From the IMG/VR virus record IMGVR_UViG_2541047684_000007: DNA of 36,787 nt; one strand, written 5' to 3'. Made by a program: the position numbers and the translations under genes. The notes under the pieces are model-generated. The model was not told where the DNA came from. It worked only from the letters and a program-made list of their open reading frames with translations, and made no database searches. Origin of the DNA: a virus. Taxonomy: Duplodnaviria > Heunggongvirae > Uroviricota > Caudoviricetes. The first letter of the stretch is position 1; every line of letters starts with the position of its first letter. Shown here one piece after another: positions 16,931 to 34,234 of the stretch.

Positions 16931-17015
16931 AGTCAGAGATAACAATCAACTAATACTGTTTTGTTGATTTTTGCTTGTAATTGGCGTTCTGGTCTGATTT
17001 TTGTGGAGTAAGTTG

Positions 17016-17399: not shown

Positions 17400-17415
17400 T
17401 ATGCAATTGTTTACT

Positions 17416-17449
17416 AAAAGTTATTAAAAATGGGGCGTGGAAACGCCCC
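17416..17449 (-). terminator. Candidate rho-independent terminator for the porin gene
   Basis: Hairpin GGGGCGT-GGAA-ACGCCCC at 17432-17449, with a U-rich tract (AUUUUUAAUAACUUUU) following on the minus strand. Confidence 0.4.
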
Positions 17450-17536
17450 CAAAATAAAGGGTAATATATAACAGAAGGTTTATATAGTAAGAAGCAAGGT
17501 AGTGCTTCTAAAGGAAGTGGCTTGAGGGCTCCACTT

Positions 17537-17578
17537 ATATGTTGCGGAGGCAAAGCCTCCCGCAACATATCTTTTTCG
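17537..17578 (+). terminator. Rho-independent terminator downstream of Q (tR'-like)
   Basis: 14-bp stem ATATGTTGCGGAGG / CCTCCCGCAACATAT with loop CAAAG, followed by CTTTTTCG on the plus strand. Confidence 0.55.
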
Positions 17579-17587
17579 TAAGTCAGA

Positions 17588-18670
17588 TTAGAACTGATAA
17601 ACCAGACCTACAGCGACGATGTCGTCGGTATCAATACCAGCTGTTTTGGTAAACTTACTATCGTCAATTAAGTTGATTTTGTAATCAACAAAAGTGGACA
17701 TGTTTTTATTAAAGTAGTAAGTAGCACCGACATCGACATACTTGACTAAGTCTCGGTCACCATGAACACCAAGGTCTTTACCTTTTGACTGAAGGTAAGC
17801 AACAGATGGACGCAGACCGAAGTCAAACTGATATTGTGCTACTGCTTCAAAGTTTTGTGCTTTGTTTGCAATATGGTTATTATCAAAAACGGTCATATTC
17901 TGAGTTTCAGAATATGTGGTAGCCAGATAGATATTGTTCGCATCATATTTCAGGCCTGCAGCCCATACTTCCGCATTTTTGCCGGAGGCATTGAATTTGC
18001 TCTTACCATAGGCGACCTGACCGTCAGTGCGATCTGATTTAGCATAGGTTGCACCCACGCCGAATCCTTCATACTCATAAGTAGTGGAGAAACCGAAACC
18101 ATCACCATTGGCTTCAGTTACGTCAGTGCGGTCATTTTTACCCTGATACTGAGCAGCAAAGTTCAGGCCATCGACCAGACCAAAGAAGTCGTTGTTACGA
18201 TAAGTTGCAACACCAGTAGTGCGACCAGTCATGAACACATCTGTTTGGGTCCAGGTATCACCACCGAATTCTGGCAGAACGTCAGTCCACGCACCGATGT
18301 CGTATGCTACACCGTAGTTACGGCCGTAATCGATTGAGCCGTAATCACCAAATTTCAGGCCTGCAAATGCAAGACGGGTTTTGTCTTTGGAAGAACCTTG
18401 AGATTCAGCACGGTTGCCTTTGAATTCATATTCCCACTGACCGAAACCAGTCAGTTGATCGTTGATTTGGGTTTCACCTTTGAAGCCAAGACGGGCATAA
18501 GTAGTATCACCATCATCTGCATCATTAGAGGAGAAGTAGTGCTTGGCATTAACTTTCCCGTATAGATCCAGCTTGTTACTGTCTTTATTATAAATTTCAG
18601 CTGCCTGAGCAGACATCGCCATCAGTACTGATGCAGCTACAGCAGAAATTGCCACTGTTAATTTTTTCAT
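17588..18670 (-). CDS. nmpC: Outer-membrane general porin (NmpC/Lc/OmpC family), lysogenic-conversion moron
   Basis: 360 aa from the ATG at 18670. Signal peptide [23 protein letters not shown]. Near-identical to my recollection of DLP12 NmpC, with the typical porin C-terminus ...VAVGLVYQF. Opposite strand to the late operon; very AT-rich upstream region. Confidence 0.85.
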
Positions 18671-19107
18671 TGTACGCCCTTTTTTTGAACTTTTATTAAA
18701 AAATGATGTCACTGCGCGATAAATATTCATCTAATCAATGTGATTATTTCAAGATGTAAGTTTTAGTTTCTCATTTAATTTGTGAAGTAGATCTCTATTT
18801 TTATCTGAACCTTTTCTATCTAATCCTATTCATGGCTCTTGTCTGAACAAAAATAAATCTATTAGCTAATTTATATTAATGGCACTTATTTATAAGTGCT
18901 CTATAATTCTTTAGCTTAATTTAAACAAACTAAAAATAACATCGGAAATTATTAACTGGTTATTTGTTGAAGTTTTCTTATGCATTTGTGGTGGTGTTTT
19001 GAACACTCGGTGGCATTCTCACAAATATCATTTAGTAGTTTACGTACGTAAAAAATTGGTTATGCTGTTAAGAGTGGTTACTTCGTCACACAGCTTAAAC
19101 CCGCCGT

Positions 19108-19140
19108 CGAGCGGGTTTTTCCATTTTTTGAGTCTCGATA
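19108..19140 (+). terminator. Rho-independent terminator upstream of the lysis genes
   Basis: Stem CCCGC / GCGGG with loop CGTCGA, followed by TTTTTCCATTTTTTG on the plus strand. Confidence 0.5.
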
Positions 19141-19258
19141 TTAGCTGATAACCCAATACCTGAGTTATTCACTGACTCCGAATCTGTTACGTTTCTGCCT
19201 TTATTGCGATACGTAGTATCCCCTTAATTTACACCCGCTTTGTCTGCGAGGTGGGGTT

Positions 19259-19474
19259 ATGAAATCCATGGATAAGTTAACAACGGGTGTCGCCTATGGT
19301 ACCTCAGCAGGTAGTGCCGGGTACTGGTTTTTACAGTTGCTCGATAAAGTCACGCCCTCACAGTGGGCGGCAATAGGTGTGCTGGGTAGCCTGGTATTTG
19401 GCCTGCTGACGTACCTGACAAACCTTTATTTCAAGATTAAAGAAGATAAGCGCAAGGCTGCGAGAGGTGAATAA
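19259..19474 (+). CDS. S: Class II holin (phage 21 S-type pinholin)
   Basis: 71 aa, [71 protein letters not shown]. Two transmembrane segments and a dual-start motif (MKSM). Confidence 0.85.
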
Positions 19475-19971
19475 TGCCTCCATCATTACGAAAAGCCGTT
19501 GCTGCTGCTATTGGTGGCGGAGCAATTGCTATAGCATCAGTGTTAATCACTGGCCCAAGTGGTAACGATGGTCTGGAAGGTGTCAGCTACATACCATACA
19601 AAGATATTGTTGGTGTATGGACTGTATGTCACGGGCATACAGGAAAAGACATCATGCTCGGTAAAACGTATACCAAAGCAGAATGCAAAGCCCTCCTGAA
19701 TAAAGACCTTGCCACGGTCGCCAGACAAATTAACCCGTACATCAAAGTCGATATACCGGAAACAATGCGCGGCGCTCTTTACTCATTCGTTTACAACGTG
19801 GGTGCTGGCAATTTCAGAACATCGACGCTTCTTCGCAAAATAAACCAGGGCGATATCAAAGGCGCATGTGATCAGCTACGTCGCTGGACATATGCTGGCG
19901 GTAAGCAATGGAAAGGTCTCATGACTCGTCGTGAGATTGAGCGTGAAATCTGTTTGTGGGGTCAGCAATGA
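19474..19971 (+). CDS. R: SAR endolysin (lysozyme, phage 21 R-type)
   Basis: 165 aa with N-terminal signal-anchor-release segment ([20 protein letters not shown]) followed by a lysozyme domain. Confidence 0.9.
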
Positions 19972-20429
19972 ACAGAGTAACCGCGATTATCTCCGCTCTG
20001 GTTATCTGCATCATCGTCTGCCTGTCATGGGCTGTTAATCATTACCGTGATAACGCCATTACCTACAAAGCCCAGCGCGACAAAAATGCCAGAGAACTGA
20101 CGCTGGCGAACGCGGCAATTACTGACATACAGATGCGTCAGCGTGATGTTGCTGCGCTCGATGCAAAATACACGAAGGAGTTAGCTGATGCGAAAGCTGA
20201 AAATGATGCTCTGCGTGATGATGTTGCCGCTGGTCGTCGTCGGTTGCACATCAAAGCAGTCTGTCAGTCAGTGCGTGAAGCCACCACCGCCTCCGGCGTG
20301 GATAATGCAGCCTCCCCCCGACTGGCAGACACCGCTGAACGGGATTATTTCACCCTCAGAGAGAGGCTGATCACTATGCAAAAACAACTGGAAGGAACCC
20401 AGAAGTATATTAATGAGCAGTGCAGATAG
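19968..20429 (+). CDS. Rz: Rz i-spanin
   Basis: ATG at 19968 overlapping the R stop. N-terminal transmembrane segment and coiled-coil, lambda Rz-like. Confidence 0.85.
20188..20370 (+). CDS. Rz1: Rz1 o-spanin lipoprotein, embedded in Rz in the +1 frame
   Basis: 60 aa with lipobox LVVVGC and proline-rich region ([16 protein letters not shown]), matching lambda Rz1. Confidence 0.8.
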
Positions 20430-20460
20430 AGCTGCCCATATCGATGGGCAACTCATGCAA

Positions 20461-20754
20461 TTATTGTGAGCAATACACACGCGCTTCCAGCGGAGTATAA
20501 ATGCCTAAAGTAATAAAACCGAGCAATCCATTTACGAATGTTTGCTGGGTTTCTGTTTTAACAACATTTTCTGCACCACCACAAATTTTTGCTGCATCGA
20601 CAGTTTTCTTCTGCCCAATTCCCGAAACGAAGAAATGATGGGTGATGGTTTCCTTTGGTGTTACTGCTGTAGGTTTGTTTCCAACAGTAAACGTCTGTTG
20701 AGCACATCCTGTAATAAGCATTGCCAGAGCGGCAGAAAACAACATTTTTTTCAT
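20461..20754 (-). CDS. bor: Bor lipoprotein (serum-resistance moron)
   Basis: 97 aa from MKKMLFSAALAMLITGC (lipobox), matching lambda Bor. Opposite strand to the late genes. Confidence 0.85.
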   Translation of the reverse strand: MKKMLFSAALAMLITGCAQQTFTVGNKPTAVTPKETITHHFFVSGIGQKKTVDAAKICGGAENVVKTETQQTFVNGLLGFITLGIYTPLEARVYCSQ

Positions 20755-21234
20755 CTTATTATCCTGCATTGTTAAAAACGGCAGAATCCTATGTGACAAC
20801 AATTAAACGATAGTTAAATGGATTGATGAAAATTAAAACTACACAGGTGGGCTCAGACTATTGGAGGAAGTTGGGGACACTCAGAATCCTGTGGAATGAA
20901 ATAAACCGGTCTATCCGTCCATTACCCTTTTAGCTGCGCTGTATCGTCGCCGTATTCCCGCATTAACCATGACCGTAGCCCGACGGGGAATTCCTTCTGC
21001 GTGAGTGTGCGGGAATAATTAAAAACGATGCACACCGGGTTTTTACCGCGTTAATGATTCGCGGGTTTATCCCGGTGCGATGGTGGAAGAAACAGGAAGC
21101 TGTATTACAGAAAGTGCTACTACTGTATCCCGATGCGATGTATGTAATGTGAGTCAGATAATGGCACAGGATGTGGTGATGTGGCAGTCTGGAACACAGG
21201 ATATATTGTCAGAATAAGACCCGTAGGAATAAAA

Positions 21235-21561
21235 ATGAAAAGACGCCTTTTACTACTTTTTCTGTTATCTGTCCTGGCAGTGGGATGCTCGCAGCAAAAA
21301 GCTGATGAGCCCCGGCAATTAGTGACGGTGTATCCACGATATCCGGAATATGCTGCAGCAAATTATATCAAGGGGCTGGTTGAGGTTAAGTTCGATATTG
21401 GTGCTGATGGGACTGTGACACGGATCGTTTTTCTCCGCTCAGAGCCTCATAATTTGTTTCGTGATGAAGTGGTGAAGGCCATGGCGAAATGGCGATTTGA
21501 AAAGAATCGCCCCTGTCAGGGAGTGAAGAGACAATTTATCTTTACGCCGTCACGTCCTTGA
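21235..21561 (+). CDS. Lipoprotein with TonB C-terminal-like domain
   Basis: ATG at 21235 (the track ORF starts at an upstream GTG). Signal peptide and lipobox MKRRLLLLFLLSVLAVGC. The segment VYPRYPEYAAANYIKGLVEVKFDIGADGTVTRIVFLRSEPHNLFRDEVVKAMAKWRFE fits the TonB_C pattern (YP...G.V.V.F.V..DG.V..V.V.......F...A..A...WRF). Confidence 0.6.
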   Translation: MKRRLLLLFLLSVLAVGCSQQKADEPRQLVTVYPRYPEYAAANYIKGLVEVKFDIGADGTVTRIVFLRSEPHNLFRDEVVKAMAKWRFEKNRPCQGVKRQFIFTPSRP

Positions 21562-21683
21562 TGCTTCCAGGTAGAGAGGGGCTGGAAGCAGGAGAAAAAT
21601 GAAAGAGCCAGCGGTTATATTTTTGTCATGGCTGACGAGGAATGATGGAAGAAGGCGTTGTATGCCACACAACGCCTCACTGT

Positions 21684-22037
21684 TCATTTCTTCTTTTTCT
21701 CTGGTGGAACCCGATGAATAAGAGTTGCACTGGTTTCCGATGAGATGGCGATATACTCGGGCAAAGTATGCTGGCAGTTTTCCAACTGGTCAAAAATACC
21801 TGCTCTCGTCTGTTGCAATGCCTGCAGCATGCGGCGGCAATGCGCCTTGCTTTTACTAACCATCTTTCCTTCCTCTATCAGTCGCTGCGTGAACTCATCA
21901 TGGAATACCAGGTAAATGCGGATGTTATCGGTTTTGGCTACGCAGCATAGTACAAAACGGACAGGTGCATCCCGGGACGGGGGAGGCGTCACATGTCCCT
22001 GTGATGGTTGTTCCGGGTAATGTACTGTGTGGGGCAT
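21684..22037 (-). CDS. Hypothetical ORF (uncertain)
   Basis: 117-aa track ORF that overlaps the next minus-strand ORF by about 110 nt in a different frame. Possibly a frameshifted remnant. Confidence 0.3.
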   Translation of the reverse strand: MPHTVHYPEQPSQGHVTPPPSRDAPVRFVLCCVAKTDNIRIYLVFHDEFTQRLIEEGKMVSKSKAHCRRMLQALQQTRAGIFDQLENCQHTLPEYIAISSETSATLIHRVPPEKKKK

Positions 22038-22176
22038 AAAAATGTCCGATAATTTTACTTTCTACCGCAGTTAGTTGATTCGTTGGTCCTGGTAGCACAT
22101 TGGGCGAGGATTTAAATGCCAGGCAACTGAAGGATGATGTCGCAAGGGAGATAGCGAGAATATTTCTGATTTTCAT
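21925..22176 (-). CDS. Hypothetical small secreted protein (uncertain)
   Basis: An internal ATG gives MKIRNILAISLATSSFSCLA (signal-peptide-like) followed by a Cys-containing mature region. Confidence 0.3.
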   Translation of the reverse strand: MKIRNILAISLATSSFSCLAFKSSPNVLPGPTNQLTAVESKIIGHFYAPHSTLPGTTITGTCDASPVPGCTCPFCTMLRSQNR

Positions 22177-22324
22177 TTGATGATGCCTCTGTGTGAAATG
22201 ACGGTAAACGACGCACTTGTGCCGGCACATAATAGCAAGCACCATAATAGATCAGATTCGATTCTTGCTGTAAGTGATAATTATTCTCGTTTTCGGGTCC
22301 TTTCCGTCGATCCAACAGGTTACG

Positions 22325-22512
22325 GGGCGGCGACCTCGCGGTTTTTCACTATTTATGAAAATTTTTCAGGGAAAATCGTGTCGGTACTTCTCGAATATAA
22401 CTTTTTGTTTTTTTTAATATTGCATCCGTAAAGGTCCGACATGAAAGTGTCCGAAAATGCCTTTTTCTGGCGTTTTCATGTCGGGCCTTGTATTTGATAA
22501 TGGGTTGTTTTC
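22325..22512. other. cos site: cosN cohesive-end sequence plus cosB
   Basis: GGGCGGCGACCT at about 22325-22336 is the lambda 12-nt cohesive end, and the flanking sequence parallels the lambda cos region. Inverted repeat GGTCCGACATGAAA / TTTCATGTCGGGCC at about 22433-22487, immediately upstream of nu1. Confidence 0.8.
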
Positions 22513-23061
22513 ATGAAGGTTAATAAAAAGAGGCTTGCCGAAATTTTCAACGTGGACCCGCGGACGATTGAACGCTGGCAGTCTCAGGGACTCCCTTGCG
22601 CCTCCAAAGGTAGTAAGGGCATTGAATCTGTATTTGATACTGCCATGGCAATTCAGTGGTATGCGCAGAGGGAAACTGATATCGAAAACGAAAAGCTCCG
22701 CAAAGAACTGGACGATTTGCGTGCGGCAGCGGAGTCAGATTTACAACCCGGCACCATTGACTATGAACGCTACCGGCTCACAAAAGCGCAGGCAGATGCG
22801 CAGGAACTGAAAAATGCCCGTGAAGACGGAGTAGTGCTGGAAACTGAACTGTTTACCTTCATTCTGCAACGTGTGGCACAGGAGATTTCGGGGATACTTG
22901 TGCGTGTGCCGTTGACATTACAGCGTAAATATCCGGACATTTCACCATCACACCTTGATGTGGTGAAAACTGAAATCGCGAAAGCCTCCAATGTTGCAGC
23001 TAAGGCCGGTGAAAACGTGGGCGGGTGGATCGATGATTTCAGACGCGCAGAAGGCAGCTAA
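22513..23061 (+). CDS. nu1: Terminase small subunit Nu1
   Basis: 182 aa, [28 protein letters not shown]... homologous to lambda Nu1 (MEVNKKQLADIFGASIRTIQNWQEQGMP...). Confidence 0.9.
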
Positions 23062-24961
23062 TGCAGCCGGTGCGATAGCTACAGGGCTTTTATCTCTCAT
23101 TATTCCTGTTCCACTGACGACAGTTCAGTGGGCCAATAAACATTATTACCTTCCTAAAGAGTCGTCTTATACCCCGGGGCGATGGGAAACACTGCCGTTT
23201 CAGGTTGGCATCATGAACTGTATGGGCAACGATCTGATTCGCACGGTTAACCTGATTAAATCTGCCCGTGTTGGTTATACAAAGATGTTGCTGGGAGTGG
23301 AGGCTTATTTTATTGAGCATAAATCACGCAACAGCCTTCTTTTTCAGCCCACGGACTCAGCTGCTGAAGATTTTATGAAATCTCATGTTGAGCCAACGAT
23401 AAGGGATGTTCCTGCATTGCTGGAGCTGGCTCCATGGTTCGGAAGAAAACACCGCGATAATACGCTCACCCTGAAGCGTTTTTCCTCCGGTGTGGGGTTC
23501 TGGTGTCTGGGTGGTGCGGCAGCAAAAAACTACCGTGAAAAATCCGTGGATGTGGTCTGTTATGACGAGCTTTCCTCGTTCGAACCGGATGTTGAAAAAG
23601 AGGGTTCGCCAACCCTGCTGGGGGATAAACGTATTGAGGGCTCTGTATGGCCAAAATCCATTCGCGGCTCGACGCCTAAAATCAAAGGCTCCTGCCAGAT
23701 CGAAAAAGCCGCTAACGAGTCGGCACACTTCATGCGTTTTTATGTGCCCTGTCCGCACTGTGGGGAGGAGCAGTATCTGAAATTTGGCGATGATGCCTCG
23801 CCTTTCGGTCTTAAGTGGGAGAAGAATAAGCCAGAAAGTGTTTTCTACCTTTGTGAGCATCATGGCTGTGTGATCCATCAGTCTGAGCTTGACCAGAGTA
23901 ACGGGCGGTGGATCTGTGAAAACACGGGCATGTGGACCCGTGACGGCCTGATGTTTTTCAGCGCCCGGGGTGATGAAATTCCGCCGCCGCGCTCCATCAC
24001 TTTCCATATCTGGACGGCGTACAGTCCGTTCACCACCTGGGTACAGATTGTCTATGACTGGCTGGATGCACTGAAAGATCCCAACGGCCTGAAAACCTTT
24101 GTGAACACCACGCTGGGCGAGACCTGGGAAGAGGCTGTGGGCGAAAAACTCGATCACCAGGTGCTGATGGATAAGGTTGTGCGTTACACGGCGGCGGTGC
24201 CTGCCCGGGTGGTTTATCTGACGGCGGGCATTGACTCGCAGCGAAACCGTTTTGAGATGTATGTCTGGGGATGGGCTCCGGGAGAGGAAGCCTTTCTGGT
24301 GGATAAAATCATCATTATGGGGCGTCCCGATGAGGAAGAGACGCTGTTACGTGTGGATGCGGCGATCAACAAAAAATACCGCCATGCGGATGGCACCGAA
24401 ATGACCATTTCCCGTGTCTGCTGGGACACCGGGGGGATCGATGGTGAAATCGTCTACCAGAGGTCAAAAAAACACGGTGTTTTCCGTGTGCTGCCGGTAA
24501 AAGGCGCGTCTGTCTATGGCAAGCCGGTGATCACCATGCCGAAAACCCGCAATCAGCGGGGCGTTTATCTGTGTGAAGTGGGGACGGACACCGCAAAAGA
24601 AATTCTCTATGCCCGTATGAAAGCCGAGCCCACGCCTGCGGATGAAGCCACGTCGTATGCCATCCGTTTTCCTGATGATCCGGAGATTTTTTCGCAGACA
24701 GAGGCGCAGCAACTGGTCGCGGAAGAGCTTGTGGAGAAGTGGGAAAAAGGAAAGATGCGTCTGCTGTGGGATAACAAAAAGCGGCGTAACGAAGCGCTGG
24801 ACTGCCTGGTGTATGCCTACGCGGCATTACGTGTGTCCGTGCAACGCTGGCAGCTTGATCTGGCTGTACTGGCAAAATCCCGGGAAGAAGAGACGACCCG
24901 GCCAACCCTTAAAGAACTGGCAGCGAAGCTGTCCGGAGGAGTGAATGGTTACAGTCGCTGA
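23033..24961 (+). CDS. A: Terminase large subunit A
   Basis: About 642 aa from the ATG at 23033, overlapping the Nu1 3' end as in lambda. Extensive similarity to lambda gpA (YYLPKES...GRWETLPFQ...KSARVGY...). Confidence 0.9.
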
Positions 24962-25151
24962 ACTGCAGGCGCTGCGTCAGGCGCGCCTTGATTTATTAAC
25001 CGGTAAACGGGTGGTGTCTGTCCAGAAAGATGGTCGAAGAATTGAATATACGGCGGCCTCTCTGGATGAGCTTAACCGGGCGATCAATGATGCGGAGTTG
25101 GTACTGGGGACAACCCGCCGTCGCCGTCGTCCGCTGGGAGTGAGGTTATGA
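24945..25151 (+). CDS. W: Head-tail joining protein W (copy 1)
   Basis: 68 aa, homologous to lambda W (...LLTGKRVVSVQKDGRRIEYTAASLDEL...). Confidence 0.85.
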   Translation: MVTVAELQALRQARLDLLTGKRVVSVQKDGRRIEYTAASLDELNRAINDAELVLGTTRRRRRPLGVRL

Positions 25152-26233
25152 AACGAACGCCTGTCCTGATTGATGTGAACGGCGTTCCGCTTCGTGAGAG
25201 TCTCAGCTACAACGGGGGCGGCGCAGGATTTGGCGGGCAAATGGCGGAGTGGTTGCCACCAGCGCAGAGTGCCGATGCAGCCCTGCTGCCTGCGTTGCGT
25301 CTGGGGAATGCCCGGGCAGATGATCTGGTGCGCAATAACGGGATAGCGGCTAATGCGGTGGCTCTGCATAAGGATCACATTGTCGGGCATATGTTTCTGA
25401 TCAGCTACCGTCCGAACTGGCGCTGGCTGGGGATGCGGGAGACCGCGGCAAAAAGCTTTGTCGATGAGGTGGAGGCGGCCTGGTCGGAATACGCCGAAGG
25501 GATGTTTGGCGAGATCGACGTGGAAGGAAAACGCACGTTCACGGAATTTATCCGTGAAGGTGTGGGCGTTCATGCGTTTAACGGCGAAATCTTTGTGCAG
25601 CCGGTCTGGGATACGGAAACCACGCAGTTATTCCGTACGCGTTTTAAAGCCGTGAGTCCGAAACGGGTGGACACGCCAGGACACGGTATGGGGAACCGTT
25701 TTCTGCGGGCCGGTGTGGAGGTCGATCGATATGGTCGTGCCGTTGCGTACCATATCTGTGAGGATGATTTTCCGTTCTCTGGTAGTGGACGATGGGAACG
25801 GATCCCGCGTGAACTTCCCACCGGGCGTCCGGCCATGCTGCATATTTTCGAGCCGGTGGAGGACGGGCAGACCCGTGGGGCTAATCAGTTTTACAGCGTC
25901 ATGGAACGGCTGAAGATGCTCGATTCCCTGCAGGCAACACAGCTTCAGTCGGCCATAGTGAAGGCGATGTATGCAGCGACGATTGAAAGTGAACTTGATA
26001 CCGAAAAGGCCTTTGAATATATCGCCGGCGCGCCACAGGAGCAGAAGGATAATCCGCTTATTAATATTCTGGAGAAGTTCTCCAGCTGGTATGACACGAA
26101 TAACGTGACACTGGGCGGTGTCAAAATTCCGCACCTTTTCCCTGGTGATGATCTGAAACTACAGACTGCGCAGGATTCATGGATAAGGTCGTGCATTACA
26201 CGGCGGCGGTGCCTGCCCGGGTGGTTTATCTGA
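25148..26233 (+). pseudogene. B: Truncated portal gene B (N-terminal ~344 codons), interrupted at the duplication junction
   Basis: Identical in-frame to the first ~344 aa of the intact portal at 27160..28752, then diverges at about 26179/26180 into out-of-frame terminase-A sequence, ending at a stop at 26233. Confidence 0.7.
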
Positions 26234-26973
26234 CGGCGGGCATTGACTCGCAGCGAAACCGTTTTGAGATGTATGTCTGGGGATGGGCACCGGGAGAGGA
26301 AGCTTTTCTGGTGGATAAAATCATCATTATGGGGCGTCCTGATGAGGAAGAGACGCTGTTACGTGTGGATGCGGCGATCAACAAAAAATACCGCCATGCA
26401 GACGGAACCGAAATGACCATTTCCCGTGTCTGCTGGGACATCGGGGGGATCGATGGCGAAATCGTTTATCAGAGGTCAAAAAAACACGGTGTTTTCCGGG
26501 TGCTGCCGGTAAAAGGCGCGTCTGTCTATGGCAAGCCGGTGATCACCATGCCGAAAACCCGCAATCAGCGGGGCGTTTATCTGTGTGAAGTGGGGACGGA
26601 CACCGCAAAAGAAATTCTCTATGCCCGTATGAAAGCCGAGCCCACGCCTGCGGATGAAGCCACGTCGTATGCCATCCGTTTTCCTGATGATCCGGAGATT
26701 TTTTCGCAGACAGAGGCGCAGCAACTGGTCGCGGAAGAGCTTGTGGAGAAGTGGGAAAAAGGAAAGATGCGTCTGCTGTGGGATAACAAAAAGCGGCGTA
26801 ACGAAGCGCTGGACTGCCTGGTGTATGCCTACGCGGCATTACGTGTGTCCGTGCAACGCTGGCAGCTTGATCTGGCTGTACTGGCAAAATCCCGGGAAGA
26901 AGAGACGACCCGGCCAACCCTTAAAGAACTGGCAGCGAAGCTGTCCGGAGGAGTGAATGGTTACAGTCGCTGA
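26179..26973 (+). pseudogene. Terminase A 3' fragment (C-terminal ~264 codons) from duplication copy 2
   Basis: Track ORF beginning [25 protein letters not shown]..., which is the C-terminal part of A (compare [12 protein letters not shown]... in the intact A). An ATG at 26179-26181 is formed at the junction with AGGA 4 nt upstream. Confidence 0.7.
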
Positions 26974-27163
26974 ACTGCAGGCGCTGCGTCAGGCGCGCCT
27001 TGATTTATTAACCGGTAAACGGGTGGTGTCTGTCCAGAAAGATGGACGAAGAATTGAATATACGGCGGCCTCTCTGGATGAGCTTAACCGGGCGATCAAT
27101 GATGCGGAGTCGGTACTGGGGACAACCCGGTGTCGCCGTCGTCCGCTGGGAGTGAGGTTATGA
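26957..27163 (+). CDS. W: Head-tail joining protein W (copy 2)
   Basis: 68 aa, differing from copy 1 at two residues (ESVLGTTRCRRRP versus ELVLGTTRRRRRP). Confidence 0.8.
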   Translation: MVTVAELQALRQARLDLLTGKRVVSVQKDGRRIEYTAASLDELNRAINDAESVLGTTRCRRRPLGVRL

Positions 27164-28752
27164 AACGAACGCCTGTCCTGATTGATGTGAACGGCGTTCC
27201 GCTTCGTGAGAGTCTCAGCTACAACGGGGGCGGTGCAGGATTTGGCGGGCAAATGGCTGAGTGGTTGCCACCGGCGCAGAGTGCCGATGCGGCCCTGCTG
27301 CCCGCGTTGCGTCTGGGGAATGCCCGGGCAGATGATCTGGTGCGCAATAACGGGATAGCGGCTAATGCGGTGGCCCTGCATAAGGATCATATTGTCGGGC
27401 ATATGTTTCTGATCAGCTACCGTCCGAACTGGCGCTGGCTGGGGATGCGGGAGACTGCGGCAAAAAGTTTTGTCGATGAGGTGGAGGCGGCCTGGTCGGA
27501 ATACGCCGAAGGGATGTTTGGCGAGATCGACGTGGAAGGGAAACGCACGTTTACGGAATTTATCCGTGAAGGTGTGGGCGTTCATGCGTTTAACGGCGAA
27601 ATCTTTGTGCAGCCGGTCTGGGATACGGAAACCACGCAGTTATTCCGTACGCGTTTTAAAGCCGTGAGTCCGAAACGGGTGGACACGCCTGGACACGGTA
27701 TGGGGAACCGTTTTCTGCGGGCCGGTGTGGAGGTCGATCGATATGGCCGTGCCGTCGCGTACCATATCTGTGAGGATGATTTTCCGTTCTCTGGTAGTGG
27801 ACGATGGGAACGGATCCCGCGTGAACTTCCCACCGGGCGTCCGGCCATGCTGCATATTTTCGAGCCGGTGGAGGACGGGCAGACCCGTGGGGCTAATCAG
27901 TTTTACAGCGTCATGGAACGGCTGAAGATGCTCGATTCCCTGCAGGCAACACAGCTTCAGTCGGCCATAGTGAAGGCGATGTATGCAGCGACGATTGAAA
28001 GTGAACTTGATACCGAAAAGGCCTTTGAATATATCGCCGGCGCGCCACAGGAGCAGAAGGATAATCCGCTTATTAATATTCTGGAGAAGTTCTCCAGCTG
28101 GTATGACACGAATAACGTGACACTGGGCGGTGTCAAAATTCCGCACCTTTTCCCTGGTGATGATCTGAAACTACAGACAGCGCAGGATTCAGACAATGGA
28201 TTTTCTGCGCTTGAACAGGCGCTGCTGCGGTATATCGCCGCCGGTCTTGGCGTTTCCTACGAACAGTTGTCCCGTGATTACTCGAAGGTCAGTTACTCAA
28301 GTGCCCGCGCCTCCGCCAATGAGTCGTGGCGCTATTTTATGGGGCGGCGAAAATTTATTGCGTCCCGGCTGGCCACGCAGATGTTTTCCTGCTGGCTGGA
28401 AGAGGCACTTCTTCGGGGGATTATTCGTCCGCCACGGGCACGTTTTGATTTTTATCAGGCGCGATCAGCCTGGTCACGGGCAGAGTGGATTGGTGCCGGA
28501 AGAATGGCCATTGACGGGCTCAAGGAGGTTCAGGAATCAGTGATGCGCATTGAGGCCGGACTGAGCACGTATGAGAAAGAGCTGGCGCTGATGGGCGAGG
28601 ATTATCAGGACATTTTCCGCCAGCAGGTCAGGGAATCTGCTGAGCGGCAAAAAGCCGGACTCTCACGTCCGGTGTGGATAGAGCAGGCGTATCAGCAGCA
28701 GATAGCGGAGAGTCGCAGGCCGGAAGAGGAGACAACACCACGTGAGACGTAA
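27160..28752 (+). CDS. B: Portal protein B (intact)
   Basis: 530 aa from MKRTPVLIDVNGVPLRESLSYNGGGAGFGGQMAEWLPP..., a lambda-family portal. Confidence 0.9.
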   Translation: MKRTPVLIDVNGVPLRESLSYNGGGAGFGGQMAEWLPPAQSADAALLPALRLGNARADDLVRNNGIAANAVALHKDHIVGHMFLISYRPNWRWLGMRETAAKSFVDEVEAAWSEYAEGMFGEIDVEGKRTFTEFIREGVGVHAFNGEIFVQPVWDTETTQLFRTRFKAVSPKRVDTPGHGMGNRFLRAGVEVDRYGRAVAYHICEDDFPFSGSGRWERIPRELPTGRPAMLHIFEPVEDGQTRGANQFYSVMERLKMLDSLQATQLQSAIVKAMYAATIESELDTEKAFEYIAGAPQEQKDNPLINILEKFSSWYDTNNVTLGGVKIPHLFPGDDLKLQTAQDSDNGFSALEQALLRYIAAGLGVSYEQLSRDYSKVSYSSARASANESWRYFMGRRKFIASRLATQMFSCWLEEALLRGIIRPPRARFDFYQARSAWSRAEWIGAGRMAIDGLKEVQESVMRIEAGLSTYEKELALMGEDYQDIFRQQVRESAERQKAGLSRPVWIEQAYQQQIAESRRPEEETTPRET

Positions 28753-30247
28753 TCTTTCACACATTATTGCCGCAGCATTCAATGAACCGCTGCTTCTGGA
28801 GCCCGCCTATGCGCGGGTTTTCTTTTGCGCGCTCGGGCGCGAGATGGGGGCAGCAAGTCTTTCGGTACCACAACAGCAGGTACAGTTTGATGCTCCCGGA
28901 ATGCTGGCTGAAACGGACGAGTACATGGCCGGAGGTAAACGACCGGCCCGTGTTTACCGGGTGGTGAACGGTATTGCTGTACTGCCGGTGACCGGCACGC
29001 TGGTGCACCGGCTGGGGGGGATGCGGCCATTTTCCGGAATGACAGGCTATGACGGCATTGTCGCCTGTCTTCAGCAGGCAATGGCGGATAGCCAGGTGCG
29101 GGGCGTACTGCTGGACATTGACAGTCCGGGCGGGCAGGCCGCCGGCGCGTTTGACTGCGCTGACATGATTTACCGCCTCCGTCAGCAGAAGCCGGTCTGG
29201 GCACTGTGCAATGACACGGCCTGTTCTGCAGCCATGCTGCTGGCGTCGGCCTGCTCCCGACGGCTGGTTACCCAGACATCCCGTATCGGCTCCATTGGCG
29301 TGATGATGAGCCATGTCAGCTATGCCGGTCATCTGGCGCAGGCCGGTGTGGATATCACGCTGATTTACTCAGGGGCGCACAAGGTGGATGGCAATCAGTT
29401 TGAAGCGTTGCCGGCAGAGGTTCGCCAGGACATGCAGCAGCGGATTGATGCGGCGCGCCGGATGTTTGCCGAAAAAGTGGCGATGTATACCGGTCTGTCT
29501 GTTGATGCCGTCACGGGAACAGAGGCTGCCGTTTTTGAAGGTCAGTCCGGCATTGAGGCCGGGCTGGCGGATGAATTAATCAATGCGTCGGATGCCATCA
29601 GTGTGATGGCCACGGCGCTGAACAGTAATGTCAGAGGAGGCACTATGCCGCAATTAACTGCAACGGAAGCCGCCGCGCAGGAGAACCAGCGAGTGATGGG
29701 GAGCCTGACATGCCAGGAAGCGAAAGGACGTGAACAGCTTGCCACGATGCTGGCAGGACAACAGGGCATGAGCGTTGAACAGGCCCGGGCGATTCTGGCC
29801 GCGGCGGCACCGCAGCAGCCGGTGGCATCCACGCAGAGTGAAGCCGATCGCATTATGGCGTGTGAAGAAGCGAACGGTCGTGAACAACTGGCGGCAACGC
29901 TGGCGGCGATGCCGGAGATGACGGTGGAAAAAGCCCGCCCGATCCTGGCTGCTTCACCGCAGGCGGATGCCGGACCATCACTCCGTGATCAGATCATGGC
30001 ACTGGATGAGGCAAAAGGGGCTGAGGCGCAGGCTGAACAGCTGGCTGCCTGCCCGGGAATGACAGTGGAGAGCGCCCGGGCTGTGCTGGCTGCGGGATCA
30101 GGTAAGGCAGAACCGGTCTCTGCATCCACAACCGCCATGTTTGAACATTTCATGGCGAACCATTCACCGGCAGCGGTACAGGGTGGCGTGGCACAGACGT
30201 CAGCAGACGGTGATGCGGACGTGAAAATGCTCATGGCCATGCCATGA
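28742..30247 (+). CDS. C: Head maturation protease C (S49/ClpP-like), with nested Nu3-type scaffold region
   Basis: 501 aa. N-terminal two-thirds homologous to lambda gpC (AFNEPLLLEPAYARVFFCAL...GIAVLPVTGTLV...WALCNDTACSAA...GSIGVMMSH...). C-terminal region carries three tandem ~45-aa repeats. Confidence 0.9.
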   Translation: MRRNLSHIIAAAFNEPLLLEPAYARVFFCALGREMGAASLSVPQQQVQFDAPGMLAETDEYMAGGKRPARVYRVVNGIAVLPVTGTLVHRLGGMRPFSGMTGYDGIVACLQQAMADSQVRGVLLDIDSPGGQAAGAFDCADMIYRLRQQKPVWALCNDTACSAAMLLASACSRRLVTQTSRIGSIGVMMSHVSYAGHLAQAGVDITLIYSGAHKVDGNQFEALPAEVRQDMQQRIDAARRMFAEKVAMYTGLSVDAVTGTEAAVFEGQSGIEAGLADELINASDAISVMATALNSNVRGGTMPQLTATEAAAQENQRVMGSLTCQEAKGREQLATMLAGQQGMSVEQARAILAAAAPQQPVASTQSEADRIMACEEANGREQLAATLAAMPEMTVEKARPILAASPQADAGPSLRDQIMALDEAKGAEAQAEQLAACPGMTVESARAVLAAGSGKAEPVSASTTAMFEHFMANHSPAAVQGGVAQTSADGDADVKMLMAMP

Positions 30248-30283
30248 AGTCAGTGCTGACCATCAATAGGAGGTTTTTACAAT

Positions 30284-30631
30284 ATGGTGACGAAAACCAT
30301 CACTGAACAGCGTGCGGAAGTACGTATTTTTGCCGGTAATGATCCGGCTCATACCGCCACAGGCAGCAGCGGGATTTCCTCGCCAACACCGGCACTGACG
30401 CCCCTGATGCTGGATGAAGCCACCGGGAAACTGGTGGTCTGGGACGGACAGAAAGCCGGTAGTGCGGTTGGCATACTGGTACTGCCGCTTGAAGGCACAG
30501 AGACGGCGCTGACGTATTACAAGTCGGGAACCTTTGCGACGGAGGCAATCCACTGGCCTGAAAGTGTGGATGAACACAAAAAGGCCAACGCCTTTGCTGG
30601 CAGTGCCCTGAGTCACGCGGCGCTGCCGTAA
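30284..30631 (+). CDS. D: Head decoration protein D
   Basis: 115 aa, homologous to lambda gpD (DPAHTATG...TPLMLD...KLVVWDG...YYKSGTF...). Strong SD AGGAGG. Confidence 0.9.
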   Translation: MVTKTITEQRAEVRIFAGNDPAHTATGSSGISSPTPALTPLMLDEATGKLVVWDGQKAGSAVGILVLPLEGTETALTYYKSGTFATEAIHWPESVDEHKKANAFAGSALSHAALP

Positions 30632-30688
30632 CACGTTATCAGGCCACCGCGGTGGCCTGACTGATTTCTGAATGAAAGGAACTGATTT

Positions 30689-31717
30689 ATGGGATTGTTT
30701 ACGACCCGCCAGTTACTCGGTTATACCGAACAAAAAGTTAAATTTCGTGCGCTGTTTCTGGAGCTGTTTTTCCGCCGTACGGTGAATTTCCATACCGAAG
30801 AGGTGATGCTGGACAAAATTACCGGAAAAACGCCGGTGGCGGCCTATGTCTCCCCGGTTGTTGAAGGAAAAGTGCTGCGTCATCGTGGTGGTGAAACCCG
30901 CGTGTTGCGTCCGGGCTACGTCAAGCCGAAACACGAATTTAATTACCAGCAGGCGGTTGAGCGCCTTCCTGGTGAAGATCCATCTCAACTGAATGATCCG
31001 GCTTACCGCCGTCTGCGTATCATTACCGATAACCTCAAACAGGAAGAGCACGCGATTGTCCAGGTGGAAGAAATGCAGGCGGTAAATGCTGTGTTGTATG
31101 GCAAATACACCATGGAAGGAGACCAGTTCGAGAAAATTGAGGTCGATTTTGGCAGGTCGACGAAGAATAACATCACTCAGGGTAGTGGTAAGGAGTGGTC
31201 AAAACAGGATCGTGACACGTTCGATCCTACACATGATATTGACCTCTACTGCGACCTGGCCAGCGGTCTTGTGAATATTGCCATTATGGACGGTACCGTC
31301 TGGCGTCTTCTGAATGGTTTTAAGCTGTTCCGCGAAAAACTGGATACCCGTCGCGGTTCAAATTCTCAACTCGAAACGGCAGTGAAAGATCTGGGCGCAG
31401 TGGTGTCCTTCAAGGGGTATTACGGCGATCTGGCCATTGTGGTGGCGAAAACGTCTTATATAGCAGAAGACGGTATCGAAAAACGTTATCTTCCAGATGG
31501 CATGCTGGTTCTGGGGAATACTGCTGCAGATGGGATCCGTTGTTACGGTGCCATTCAGGATGCTCAGGCGTTGTCCGAAGGTGTGGTGGCCTCTTCCCGT
31601 TATCCGAAACACTGGCTGACGGTAGGGGATCCCGCCCGTGAATTTACCATGACGCAGTCCGCGCCGCTGATGGTGTTGCCGGACCCGGATGAGTTTGTGG
31701 TGGTACAGGTGAAATAA
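30689..31717 (+). CDS. E: Major capsid protein E
   Basis: 342 aa, homologous throughout to lambda gpE (LFLELFFR..., PGYVKPKHE..., IVQVEEMQAVNAVLYGKYTM..., KLDTRRGSNSQLETAVKDLG..., GDPAREFTMTQSAPLMVLPDPDEF). Confidence 0.95.
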   Translation: MGLFTTRQLLGYTEQKVKFRALFLELFFRRTVNFHTEEVMLDKITGKTPVAAYVSPVVEGKVLRHRGGETRVLRPGYVKPKHEFNYQQAVERLPGEDPSQLNDPAYRRLRIITDNLKQEEHAIVQVEEMQAVNAVLYGKYTMEGDQFEKIEVDFGRSTKNNITQGSGKEWSKQDRDTFDPTHDIDLYCDLASGLVNIAIMDGTVWRLLNGFKLFREKLDTRRGSNSQLETAVKDLGAVVSFKGYYGDLAIVVAKTSYIAEDGIEKRYLPDGMLVLGNTAADGIRCYGAIQDAQALSEGVVASSRYPKHWLTVGDPAREFTMTQSAPLMVLPDPDEFVVVQVK

Positions 31718-31768
31718 TCCGTGAGCGGGGGCGAAATGCCCCCGTGTCTTTTTTCACAGGGGGCTGAT

Positions 31769-32143
31769 ATGGCAACGAAAGAGCAAAATCTGAAACGGCT
31801 TGATGAACTGGCCCTGATTCTGGGGCGTGAGCCGGATATATCCGGGAGTGCCGCAGAGATAGCGCAGCGGGTGGCAGAATGGGAAGAGGAAATGCAGTCA
31901 TCCGGCGATGATGTACAGGTTATGAATATGGATATCCGGGAGCGGGAAACCGCGGCTCATGATGTTCGTGAGGAAACATCCGGCGCGTTAACGCGCATCA
32001 GAGTTCTGACCTGCCTCCATCTCTGTGGCGTTGATGGTGAAACGGGGGAATCCGTTGAGCTTGCGGATGTTGGTCGGGTGATTCTGATTATGTCCTCAGA
32101 TGCAAAAACACACGTTGATGGTGGAATGGCTGTTTATGCGTGA
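31769..32143 (+). CDS. FI: DNA packaging protein FI
   Basis: About 124 aa from the ATG at 31769, in the FI position between E and FII. Acidic, as expected for FI; sequence diverged from lambda FI. Confidence 0.7.
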   Translation: MATKEQNLKRLDELALILGREPDISGSAAEIAQRVAEWEEEMQSSGDDVQVMNMDIRERETAAHDVREETSGALTRIRVLTCLHLCGVDGETGESVELADVGRVILIMSSDAKTHVDGGMAVYA

Positions 32144-32489
32144 TTTTCAGAATGCCTTTGATGCCGCCCTTGCCGGGGTGGACAGTACGATTGTTGAAGT
32201 GATGGGCATCAGTGCGCAGTTCACCTCCGGTGCACAGCGTGGCGGCGAGGTTCATGGCGTTTTTGACGATCCGGAGTCGCTGGGTTTTGCCAGTAGTGGG
32301 ATCCGTATTGAAGGAAGTAACCCGTCATTATTTGTGCTTACGGATACGGTTTGTGCTGTACGGCGTGGTGACACGCTGACCATTAACGGCGAGATGTTCT
32401 GGGTGGACCGTGTTTCTCCGGATGACGGAGGGAGTTGTTATCTCTGGCTCAACCGGGGGCAACCACCTGCCGCCAGCCGTCGCCGCTGA
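32136..32489 (+). CDS. FII: Head-tail connector protein FII
   Basis: 117 aa from MRDFQNAFDAAL..., homologous to lambda FII (MADFDNLFDAAI...GVFDDPE...SLFV.TD...RRGDTLTI....FWVDRVSPDDGGSC.LWL). Confidence 0.85.
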   Translation: MRDFQNAFDAALAGVDSTIVEVMGISAQFTSGAQRGGEVHGVFDDPESLGFASSGIRIEGSNPSLFVLTDTVCAVRRGDTLTINGEMFWVDRVSPDDGGSCYLWLNRGQPPAASRRR

Positions 32490-32500
32490 AAGGGGGATGT

Positions 32501-33079
32501 ATGGCCATAAAAGGTCTTGAGCAGGCCGTTGAAAACCTCAGCCGTATCAGCAAAACGGCAGTGCCTGGTGCCGCCGCAATGGCCATTAACCGCGTTGCTT
32601 CATCCGCGATATCGCAGTCGGCGTCACTGGTTGCCCGTGAGACAAAGGTACGCCGGAAACTGGTAAAGGAAAGGGCCAGGCTGAAAAGGGCCACGGTCAA
32701 AAATCCGCAGGCCAGAATCAAAGTTAACCGGGGGGATTTGCCCGTAATCAGGCTGGGTAATGCGCGGGTTGTCCTTTCGCGCCGCAGGCGTCGTAAAAAG
32801 GGGCAGCGTTCATCCCTGAAAGGTGGCGGCAGCGTGCTTGTGGTGGGTAACCGTCGTATTCCCGGCGCGTTTATTCAGCAACTGAAAAATGGCCGCTGGC
32901 ATGTCATGCAGCGTGTGGCCGGGAAAAACCGTTACCCCATTGATGTGGTGAAAATTCCGATGGCGGTGCCGCTGACCACGGCGTTTAAACAGAATATTGA
33001 GCGGATACGGCGTGAGCGTCTTCCGAAAGAGCTGGGCTATGCGCTGCAGCATCAACTGAGGATGGTAATAAAGCGATGA
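32501..33079 (+). CDS. Z: Tail completion protein Z
   Basis: 192 aa from the ATG at 32501, in the lambda Z position; basic protein. Confidence 0.8.
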   Translation: MAIKGLEQAVENLSRISKTAVPGAAAMAINRVASSAISQSASLVARETKVRRKLVKERARLKRATVKNPQARIKVNRGDLPVIRLGNARVVLSRRRRRKKGQRSSLKGGGSVLVVGNRRIPGAFIQQLKNGRWHVMQRVAGKNRYPIDVVKIPMAVPLTTAFKQNIERIRRERLPKELGYALQHQLRMVIKR

Positions 33080-33471
33080 AACATACTGAATTCCGTGCAG
33101 CCGTACTGGATGCACTGGAAAAACATGACACCGAGGCGACGCTTTTTGATGGTCGCCCCGCTGTTTTTGATGAGGCGGATTTTCCGGCAATTGCCGTTTA
33201 TCTCACCGGCGCTGAATACACGGGCGAAGAGCTGGACAGCGATACCTGGCAGGCGGAGCTGCATATTGAAGTTTTCCTGCCTGCTCAGGTGCCGGATTCA
33301 GAGCTGGATTCGTGGATGGAAAGCCGGATTTATCCGGCGATGAGCGATATCCCGGCACTGTCAGATTTGATCACCAGTATGGTGGCCAGTGGCTATGACT
33401 ACCGGCGCGACGATGATGCGGGCCTGTGGAGTTCAGCCGATCTGACTTATGTCATTACCTATGAAATGTGA
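33076..33471 (+). CDS. U: Tail terminator protein U
   Basis: 131 aa, ATGA overlap with the Z stop, in the lambda U position. Confidence 0.85.
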
Positions 33472-33478
33472 GGACGAT

Positions 33479-34219
33479 ATGCCAACACCAAATCCTCTGG
33501 CACCGGTGAAAGGGGCCGGAACCACACTGTGGGTTTATAACGGGAGCGGCGACCCTTATGCAAACCCGCTTTCAGACAATGACTGGTCGCGTCTGGCAAA
33601 AATTAAAGACCTGACGCCCGGCGAACTGACCGCTGAGTCCTATGACGACAGTTATCTCGATGATGAAGATGCGGACTGGACCGCGACCGGGCAGGGGCAG
33701 AAATCCGCCGGAGATACCAGCTTCACGCTGGCGTGGATGCCCGGAGAGCAGGGGCAGCAGGCGCTGCTGGCGTGGTTTAATGAAGGTGATACCCGTGCCT
33801 ATAAAATCCGCTTCCCGAACGGCACGGTCGATGTGTTCCGTGGCTGGGTCAGCAGTATCGGTAAGGCGGTGACGGCGAAGGAAGTGATCACCCGTACGGT
33901 GAAGGTCACCAATGTGGGCCGTCCGTCAATGGCAGAAGATCGCAGTACGGTGACGGCGGCAACCGGTATGACCGTGACGCCTGCCAGCTCCTCGGTGGTG
34001 AAAGGGCAGAGCACCACGCTGACCGTGGCCTTCCAGCCGGAGGGCGCAACTGACAAGAGCTTCCGTGCGGTGTCAGCGGATAAAACAAAAGCCACCGTGT
34101 CGGTCAGTGGTATGACCATCACCGTGAACGGCGTTGCTGCAGGCAAGGTCAACATTCCGGTTGTATCCGGTAATGGTGAACTTGCTGCGGTTGCAGAAAT
34201 CACTGTCACCGACAGTTAA
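33479..34219 (+). CDS. V: Major tail tube protein V (with C-terminal Ig-like domain)
   Basis: 246 aa from [20 protein letters not shown]..., near-identical to lambda gpV. Confidence 0.95.
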
Positions 34220-34234
34220 TCCGGAGAGTCAGCG

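Follow-up and report, generated by a model that had tools for sequence, protein, structure and literature searches.

The record of an E. coli lambdoid prophage integrated at icd, with head genes of the phage 21 type, contains a 2-kb tandem repeat covering parts of its terminase large subunit and portal genes and the whole of the small gene W between them, and on balance this is probably a false, “heterotype-like” tandem duplication that arose when short-read assembly mixed two paralogous prophages. That the repeat is truly present in the record, and that it goes beyond anything attributable to chance, is plain; the reasons for doubting it lie in the way the differences between its two copies are distributed, in the uniqueness of its junction and in the draft status of its source.

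The repeat and its genes as assembled

The window (the whole stretch of DNA analysed here, 36,787 nucleotides in length) corresponds to bases 16065-52851 of the draft scaffold KE698876.1 (GCA_000456125.1), which terminates 2 nt past the window end, within the tape-measure gene. KE-prefixed scaffolds in this accession range are presumably Broad ALLPATHS-LG assemblies; a literature search for the assembly accession GCA_000456125.1 returned no match. There is no N anywhere in the window, and hence no run of N between the repeat copies.

The repeat is direct and head-to-tail with a period of exactly 2012 bp, its copies (24168-26179 and 26180-28191) differing by 32 substitutions and no indels (98.4% identity), so that the imperfect 2,012-bp tandem duplication described in the initial annotation is confirmed at these positions. 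So too is the 1-nt microhomology reported there for 26179/26180, which corresponds to an A at 24167/26179 common to both repeat edges. The features concerned are as follows, alleles being called icd-type or potB-type according to the prophage (see below) to which they belong.

22513..23061, + strand: Nu1 / phage 21 gp1, terminase small subunit (ORF; Pfam Phage_Nu1; 99% nucleotide identity to phage 21)
23033..24961, + strand: A / gp2, terminase large subunit, full length, 642 aa (GpA_ATPase and GpA_nuclease domains)
24168..26179, + strand: repeat copy 1, made up of the 3' 41% of A, all of W and portal codons 1-344
24945..25151, + strand: W (gp3) copy 1 (protein identical to W of the CFT073 potB prophage)
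25148..26233, + strand: truncated portal ORF, with 344 native codons followed by an out-of-frame tail of 17 aa
26167..26195, + strand: region of the junction 26179/26180, where portal codon 344 runs into A codon 379 with an overlap of 1 nt
26179..26973, + strand: A' fragment ORF of 264 aa, covering residues 379-642 of A and only its nuclease domain
26180..28191, + strand: repeat copy 2 (allele phase the exact complement of copy 1)
26957..27163, + strand: W (gp3) copy 2 (protein identical to W of the icd prophage)
27160..28752, + strand: full-length portal B / gp4, 530 aa (ORF, domain search)
28192..29020, + strand: single-copy stretch past the repeat (potB-type alleles scattered among icd-type)

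Reading frames and domains thus bear out the gene outcome originally proposed, namely an intact A, a W, a truncated portal, an A fragment, a second W and an intact B.

The junction itself, of which ACTGCGCAGGATTCATGGATAAGGTCGTGC is a k-mer, is hybrid within 16 nt, the site on its left (26167) being icd-type and those on its right (26190 and 26195) potB-type. It was searched for as the 20-mer GCAGGATTCATGGATAAGGT, which occurs in none of 5,426 complete E. coli genomes and is missing from the GTDB representatives and IMG/VR; four metagenome matches were put down to chance, their flanks being unrelated. Neither the junction nor a second W was found in the 1,856 complete genomes having this region, in 142 other fetched W loci or in 31 phage records, and the source scaffold is the only one of 143 loci with W to have two W genes, while the exact truncated-portal protein occurs in one contig only in an index of 153 billion genes. 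The strains O55:H7 RM12579 and NJS001 were considered as possible junction carriers and rejected, as what they have are A'-B' deletion fusions in a normal gene order. The comparison with related prophages that had been suggested at the outset gave a uniform result, since all six finished relatives compared (DA61218, SCU-112, CFT073, clone D i14, ATCC 25922 and Nissle 1917) have the unduplicated single copy.

Origin and phase of the alleles

The source strain shares its lineage with CFT073, Nissle 1917, clone D and ATCC 25922, and, to judge from these close relatives, it very probably has a lambdoid prophage at each of two sites, icd and potB. In the related genomes of CFT073 and clone D i14 the potB prophage is oriented like the icd prophage, 61-76 kb away from it, and has the same head genes, and its A-W-B region is 96-100% identical (the range also found over this zone between the potB and icd prophages of CFT073 itself; for the source lineage the A-W-B head genes of the two prophages are stated to be 98-100% identical). 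Outside the region of interest the window follows the icd prophage of DA61218 very closely, positions 1-24177 and 29044-36787 being identical to it except for one 1-nt indel near 12060, so that all divergence from that prophage is confined to 24178-29020. Within this interval the intact A (23033..24961) is icd-type as far as 24328 and then has potB-type alleles at 24388-24487, whilst in the single-copy stretch beyond the repeat potB-type sites (28363, 28527, 28530, 28716, 29017 and 29020) are interleaved with icd-type alleles at 28482-28978.

Every one of the 32 differences between the copies is a difference between an icd-type and a potB-type allele, 13 of them one way round and 19 the other, and comparison with the icd and potB references reveals no base private to either copy. 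If all 35 sites at which the two references differ across the repeat are considered, 32 have one allele of each type; at the other three both copies are potB-type, and at no site are both icd-type. Along the repeat the two kinds of allele fall into seven alternating blocks, the copies being complementary in each; over the 32 sites the phase of copy 1 (1 = icd-type, 2 = potB-type) reads as follows, several of the switches being spaced by only 24-72 nt.

11111 22222222 1 22222222 111111 222 1

The chance of complementarity to the extent observed is about 0.008 if reckoned by blocks and 1e-6 if reckoned by sites. Re-phasing of the alleles yields a potB-type haplotype that at least 12 complete genomes match perfectly (2012/2012; in clone D i14 at its potB prophage), and an icd-type haplotype 4 bases off the Nissle/CFT073/DA61218 allele. 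As assembled, the copies have best matches 13 and 14 mismatches away, and neither copy haplotype exists in the 5,426 complete E. coli genomes, whereas the re-sorted potB-type haplotype does.

The nature of the differences also bears on the age of the repeat. No fewer than 28 of the 32 are synonymous third-position changes (P about 2e-11 under neutrality), even though truncation affects two of the four gene pieces in the duplication, and the other four change residues (R/H, T/I, L/S and R/C, all of them correctly listed in the initial annotation). Given this, and given that every difference is a pre-existing allele of another prophage, the suggestion of an older duplication that has since diverged must be rejected.

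It would be tempting to take the number of phase switches as itself diagnostic of an artefact, but this was rejected, since divergent natural alleles can reach 25 such “switches”; it is because the count is undiagnostic alone that the argument has to rest on complementarity, on the lack of private bases and on the exact match after re-phasing. For what the count is worth, complete genomes and a sequenced phage have 0-3 phase switches (among those fetched contigs that are almost wholly icd- or potB-type), and an exact-segment scan of IMG/VR across the switch between blocks a and b gave 70 contigs of the pure icd-type and 68 of the pure potB-type, hybrids being rare yet present (1 and 2 contigs). 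Natural exchange is seen in finished genomes, the icd prophages of SCU-112 and ATCC 25922 each having one long potB-type tract and those of CFT073 and clone D i14 having single potB-type sites. A checkerboard similar to that described here appears in several draft-derived contigs (L019, L063 and L146). Contig breaks are frequent inside the A-W-B zone. The idea that the repeat borders mark the ends of homology between the icd and potB prophages was also rejected, as in unit coordinates identity stays high over roughly 23600-29100 and there is no step at either 24168 or 26179.

Assembly artefact or event in the cell

In the reading that we prefer, the assembler would have been unable to separate the icd and potB loci across the A-W-B zone and would have extended two layouts inward from the unique flanks of the icd prophage, one of which ended at 26179 while the other started at the equivalent of 24168. 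Each layout would have drawn part of the reads of both prophages, and the two would then have been joined end to end rather than merged as a 2,012-bp overlap. The manner of this joining is something we infer, but a complementary checkerboard is just what should result if two layouts divide between them the reads of two paralogous loci, and it is predicted by no known recombination route. The initial annotation had offered recombination between two related phages as one explanation; it was right to the extent that there is a second allele set, belonging to the potB prophage that the same lineage carries, but recombination does not account for the checkerboard. Its further view, that this was not an obvious collapsed-repeat artefact, is unsupported in the light of the checkerboard, the draft scaffold and a junction seen nowhere else. 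There are nonetheless several points that sit less comfortably with a false duplication. Most documented cases flank a gap, and here there is no run of N between the copies; the join lacks an overlap usable by an assembly graph, so that an end-to-end join free of reads must be assumed; the 24-72 nt spacing of some switches requires that the assembler used small k-mers or a step working by consensus; and the mixing is narrower (unit coordinates 24178-27008) than the similarity of the icd and potB prophages, which remain alike for about 2 kb beyond. A slight excess of potB-type calls (40/72) would be compatible, too, with three real copies, two of them potB-type.

It is possible, if doubtful, that the junction exists in the cell, private to this strain, and that the checkerboard alone is due to mis-phasing by the assembler. 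The junction markers are matched by one version of this idea, a templated insertion running from the icd portal gene (after codon 344) into the potB A gene (codon 379), in which a template switch during replication or repair, or illegitimate recombination, copied some 2-2.8 kb of potB-type DNA before a return by homology; such an insertion predicts that the true copy 1 is icd-type throughout and the true copy 2 potB-type throughout. The icd-type markers to the left and potB-type markers to the right of the junction are what a join between two prophages predicts, 1-nt microhomology is typical of illegitimate joins, the potB-type alleles start exactly at the junction and end at 29020, and the small surplus of potB-type calls and the lack of an N gap between the copies are in keeping with it. 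The icd prophage moreover encodes Bet, Exo and Gam, and Red-type recombinases of this kind drive exchange with resident prophages (PMC3945230), while the A'-B' deletion fusions of O55:H7 and NJS001 are evidence of natural illegitimate events in the A/W/B region. On the other hand, the junction is known from a single draft scaffold, and mis-phasing still has to account for the swaps in blocks b, d and f and again for the icd-type alleles at 28482-28978, as a potB-derived stretch there would have none in the genome. Two identical icd-type copies are disfavoured by there being no site that is icd-type in both. We regard as unlikely the specific proposal that the A-W-B segment of the potB prophage was copied into the icd portal gene by a microhomology-mediated template switch or some other illegitimate event, giving a tandem duplication with a second copy derived from another resident prophage, and that the assembler merely scrambled the phase of the copies.

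Two further explanations have much less to be said for them. The record might be literally true, the repeat being a real tandem duplication with really mosaic copies, whether through divergence after an older event or through gene conversion with the potB prophage. Short patches of real conversion do occur in finished genomes (the single sites and longer tracts described above), natural alleles of the head module are highly mosaic, and an assembler using a large k-mer would require hybrid k-mers spanning 24-72 nt to be present in the reads. However, gene conversion is non-reciprocal, so that sites of the same type in both copies would be expected rather than the one-of-each pattern found at 32 of 35; nor should it produce block borders that match exactly in both copies. 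Divergence after duplication is excluded by the proportion of synonymous changes together with the complete lack of private bases, and the copy haplotypes are unknown among the 5,426 genomes whereas the re-sorted ones occur, all of which makes this explanation highly improbable. Scarcely more credible is the proposal that the junction came from a chimeric read over the circularisation point of a mate-pair (jumping-library) fragment of about 2 kb, used as an assembly patch. The geometry suits, in that a downstream end is joined with almost no homology to a start 2,012 bp upstream, as in a circularised fragment, and 2-3 kb jumping libraries were standard input for ALLPATHS-LG (PMC4580222), but a single fragment should carry one prophage's alleles on both sides of the join; with alleles of two prophages meeting there, an origin in one such fragment was rejected.

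The readings have different consequences. If the repeat is an assembly artefact, then the 2-kb segment would have two genomic copies, one per prophage, rather than three; no truncated portal, A' fragment or second W would exist in the cell, these being phantom genes of the public annotation; and the locus would be uninformative as to duplication, packaging tolerance or prophage decay. The lesson would then be a methodological one, that two near-identical lambdoid prophages in a genome can lead to chimeric head genes, or even false tandem repeats, in short-read drafts, where recombination or gene gain may wrongly be read into them. Such false repeats can be exposed simply, by asking whether every difference between copies is an allele of the paralogue, and whether these alleles are distributed complementarily. 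Should the junction instead prove real, it would document that a resident prophage had served as template for an insertion into a second one, a result of modest interest.

Relation to known systems

The closest known head module is that of phage 21 (gp1/Nu1, gp2/A, gp3/W, gp4/B; OL657228.1, M81255.1), which has the same gene order; the order Nu1-A-W-B-C and the Pfam domains of the window fit a module of this type, with 99.0% nucleotide identity to OL657228.1. All 31 matching phage records have the unduplicated order, unlike the source scaffold.

Tandem duplications formed by illegitimate recombination in phage lambda provide an experimentally confirmed precedent for a few-kb head-to-tail repeat in a cos phage. 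As there, the present junction has little or no homology, and the extra length would count against the packaging limit; but copies of a lambda duplication are identical at formation, whereas here they differ, and only by alleles of another prophage, at a junction that lacks independent support.

Lambdoid phages exchange DNA with resident prophages by means of Red/Rad52-like recombinases (De Paepe et al. 2014, PMC3945230), which accounts for the real potB-type tracts in the icd prophages of SCU-112 and ATCC 25922 and forms the background to the rival idea of a templated insertion. Such exchange gives contiguous replaced tracts at homologous positions, however, and not complementary mosaics in a tandem repeat.

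Adjacent false duplications of two diverged alleles, sometimes with a gap fill that is unsupported by reads, are a documented class of assembly error (PMC9516828), and it is the false heterotype duplications of Ko et al. (2022, Genome Biol 23:205, PMC9516828) that the present repeat most resembles. On the artefact reading, both of the diverged versions would here as there be retained side by side, with version-specific alleles in each copy and with false extra and false truncated genes; the duplication is missing from better assemblies. The cases differ in that those concerned the haplotypes of diploids, whereas the two versions here would be paralogous prophages of one haploid genome, their alleles interleaved between the copies and with no N gap to separate them.

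The repeat and its source record

When the window is compared with itself at an offset of 2012 bp, the tandem repeat described in the initial annotation is confirmed: near-perfect identity runs from 24167/24168 to 26179 and is absent outside these limits, and the two copies (24168-26179 and 26180-28191) differ by 32 substitutions and no indels (98.4% identity). The left border (...CAGGTGCTG/ATGGATAAGG) lies in gene A, for the terminase large subunit, and the right border (...CAGGATTCA/GACAATGG) in the portal gene, while the junction at 26179/26180 reads ...CAGGATTC-A-TGGATAAGG, one A being common to both sides. The window contains no N, and no N gap separates the copies. The reading frames already listed for A, W (gp3) and the portal (B, gp4) match exactly.

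Open reading frames across the repeat (window coordinates)
23033-24961: intact A
24945-25151: W, copy 1
25148-26233: truncated portal, 344 codons followed by a frameshifted tail of 17 aa
26179-26973: A fragment, 264 aa
26957-27163: W, copy 2
27160-28752: intact portal

An exact look-up of the truncated-portal protein found just one contig in the whole index, namely scaffold KE698876.1 (52,853 bp) of the NCBI draft assembly GCA_000456125.1, of which the window comprises bases 16065-52851. Positions 1-22000 are 100% identical to the icd prophage found in many complete E. coli genomes (the CFT073, Nissle 1917, ATCC 25922 and DA61218 group). Relative to DA61218 there are no mismatches at approximately 12100-24177 or at 29021-36787, and upstream of 12100 the sole difference is one 1-nt indel near 12060 (about 12020-12070); this indel, also the only difference from clone D i14 in the first 24 kb, has the cI-like repressor region on one side and the cro-like gene on the other. 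Against the single DA61218 copy there are 23 differing sites in copy 1 and 17 in copy 2, with 6 more mismatches at 28363-29020. The head region is 99.0-99.3% identical to that of phage 21 and its relatives, and a check of related phages for the unduplicated arrangement found that order in all 31 matching phage records. Also inside the prophage is a porin gene (17588-18730, minus strand; Porin_1 domain, annotated as ompC in related genomes), flanked by the Q antiterminator and lysis genes, and immediately downstream of the lysis cassette, at about 20461-21561, there is a Bor/Iss lipoprotein gene together with a small TonB_C-domain ORF.

The junction was found in none of 5,426 complete E. coli genomes (1,856 of them containing the region), nor in GTDB species representatives or IMG/VR, and among 143 fetched W-containing loci only the source scaffold has two W genes. 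Four metagenome matches to the junction 20-mer were rejected, all having unrelated flanks, as were two complete genomes that seemed to cover the junction query; the latter prove to be A'-B' deletion fusions in degraded prophages, a different event.

Deletion fusions of A and portal
O55:H7 RM12579, NC_017656.1, 322571-324738: 5' A joined to 3' portal
NJS001, NZ_CP114130.1, 3081895-3084684: 5' A joined to 3' portal (929-aa in-frame ORF, annotated 'phage portal protein')

These two deletions are independent of each other, and the A/W/B interval seems to be prone to illegitimate deletion.

Alleles of the icd and potB prophages

A second lambdoid prophage is present at potB in CFT073, 76 kb from the icd prophage, in the same orientation and sharing its head gene set; in clone D i14 the two prophages are arranged likewise, 61 kb apart. 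In unit coordinates (in which window 24178-29020 becomes 24178-27008) the icd and potB prophages are 96-100% identical at about 23600-29100, with perfectly matching runs as long as 546 bp, as against 85-95% in the 5' part of A.

If the DA61218/CFT073 icd allele is called type I and the potB allele type II, then every one of the 32 differences between the copies is a type I versus type II difference, and neither copy has any other base at any of these sites. Copy 1 has type I and copy 2 type II at 13 sites, and the opposite holds at 19; taken in order, the copy holding the type I allele is 11111 22222222 1 22222222 111111 222 1. There are thus seven alternating blocks, with the two copies exactly complementary (chance about 0.008 by blocks, about 1e-6 by sites). 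The references differ at 35 sites in the unit, the remaining three being type II in both copies and none type I in both. Picking type II at every site yields a sequence found without mismatch (2012/2012 positions, 3716 bits) in at least a dozen complete genomes, and in clone D i14 this match (1311101-1313112) is the potB prophage; picking type I throughout leaves 4 differences from the icd allele that is standard in Nissle 1917, CFT073 and DA61218. As assembled, the copies have best matches among the 5,426 genomes of 3644 and 3639 bits, corresponding to 13 and 14 mismatches. The W protein of copy 1 is potB-type and that of copy 2 icd-type, type I and type II alleles are interleaved in the single-copy stretch 28192-29020 as well, and the junction itself is hybrid, its nearest left marker (26167, 12 nt away) being type I and its nearest right markers (26190 and 26195, 11 and 16 nt away) type II.

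An older duplication followed by divergence, one of the options originally put forward, is excluded by these data: of the 32 changes, 28 fall at third codon positions and are synonymous (P ~2e-11 if neutral), even though selection could not be acting on a truncated portal and an A fragment, and every variant already exists in another prophage. Repeated gene conversion, as a real source of the differences, is very unlikely, since it is non-reciprocal and should leave sites that are I/I or II/II, whereas the copies are complementary with identical block borders. Such complementarity is what would be expected when the reads of two loci are split between two layouts, each being used once.

Finished and draft sequences

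Phase was scored at 91 sites that distinguish types I and II, considering only contigs composed almost wholly of type I and type II alleles. The loci of complete genomes, like that of one sequenced phage, switch phase 0-3 times. The icd prophage of SCU-112 (NZ_CP051725.1) has one long contiguous type II tract (unit 24163-25678), that of ATCC 25922 (NZ_CP009072.1) has one running from unit 25678 to beyond 27100, and CFT073 and clone D i14 have a single potB-type (converted) site each in their icd copy; these look like real conversion between resident prophages, though short-read polishing artefacts are possible too. Three draft-derived IMG/VR contigs (IMGVR_UViG_2541047914_000003, IMGVR_UViG_2541047717_000004 and IMGVR_UViG_2563366950_000002) have 8-19 switches and 2-5 private bases, with the same fine checkerboard in A-W-B, which suggests that assemblies in this lineage are repeatedly affected. 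Several draft contigs, including the first of these (at unit 25734), end inside the A-W-B mixing zone. KE698876.1 itself ends within the tape-measure gene, about 840 nt short of the gene end (window 36787 being base 52851 of 52853), where the potB homologue is about 90% identical, another sign of assembly breaking where both prophages are alike. It must be remembered that a switch count alone proves nothing, as more divergent natural alleles score up to 25 'switches'; the argument therefore rests on complementarity, the lack of private bases and the exact match after re-phasing.

Two further observations come from complete genomes. In ATCC 25922, small insertions (GCAAGCAATTCAAATGAAACC versus GCAGCATTCAATGAACC) are clustered at the start of the S49 peptidase gene (unit about 26760-26775); they look like long-read indel error in NZ_CP009072.1, where the gene is annotated as frameshifted. 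In AVS0970 (NZ_CP124502.1) the portal gene itself shows real decay: an internal stop (CAG to TAG, unit 26519) interrupts it, and it carries a pseudogene annotation.

Origin of the repeat

Our preferred explanation, which we consider probable without being assured, is a false duplication of the 'heterotype' kind. Starting in the unique flanks of the icd prophage, two contigs would have extended into the zone where the two prophages are hard to separate, overshooting each other by 2,012 bp and splitting the reads of both prophages between them, before being joined end to end. This picture would explain why the copies are complementary, why mixing is limited to 24178-29020, why the junction is unique and why the total allele content is that of two copies. 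Its weak points are the lack of an N gap, the spacing of some phase switches (just 24-72 nt) and a slight type II excess.

It is possible, if rather doubtful, that the junction is real and the copies are mis-phased. A potB-templated insertion into the icd portal gene is the version of this that best fits the hybrid junction, but assembler mixing would still be needed to account for the swapped blocks and for the type I alleles at 28482-28978, while the lack of any site with type I in both copies tells against a duplication of identical type I units. A junction derived from a circularised mate-pair fragment has suitable geometry, and 2-3 kb jumping libraries were standard for ALLPATHS-LG (PMC4580222), but alleles of two prophages could not lie on a single fragment, and we regard this origin as highly improbable; there is similarly very little likelihood that the record is literally true. 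Were the duplication real, A, one W and one portal would be intact, so that the head genes would be formally complete, although a 344-residue portal fragment made from the normal position could disturb assembly of the portal ring. Packaging of a prophage lengthened by about 2 kb would probably still be possible, given that relatives with the same phage-21-type head module measure between 42.9 and 54.4 kb.

The original view that this was not an obvious collapsed-repeat artefact is thus not upheld: the duplication is most probably absent from the cell, and what makes it imperfect is the mixing of two paralogous prophages. The finding is of use as a warning about prophage paralogy in draft assemblies. 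In a 'heterotype' duplication, both diverged versions of a sequence are kept and set side by side, sometimes joined by a gap fill that no reads support (PMC9516828); such duplications are known from diploid assemblies, whereas here the two versions would be the icd and potB prophages.
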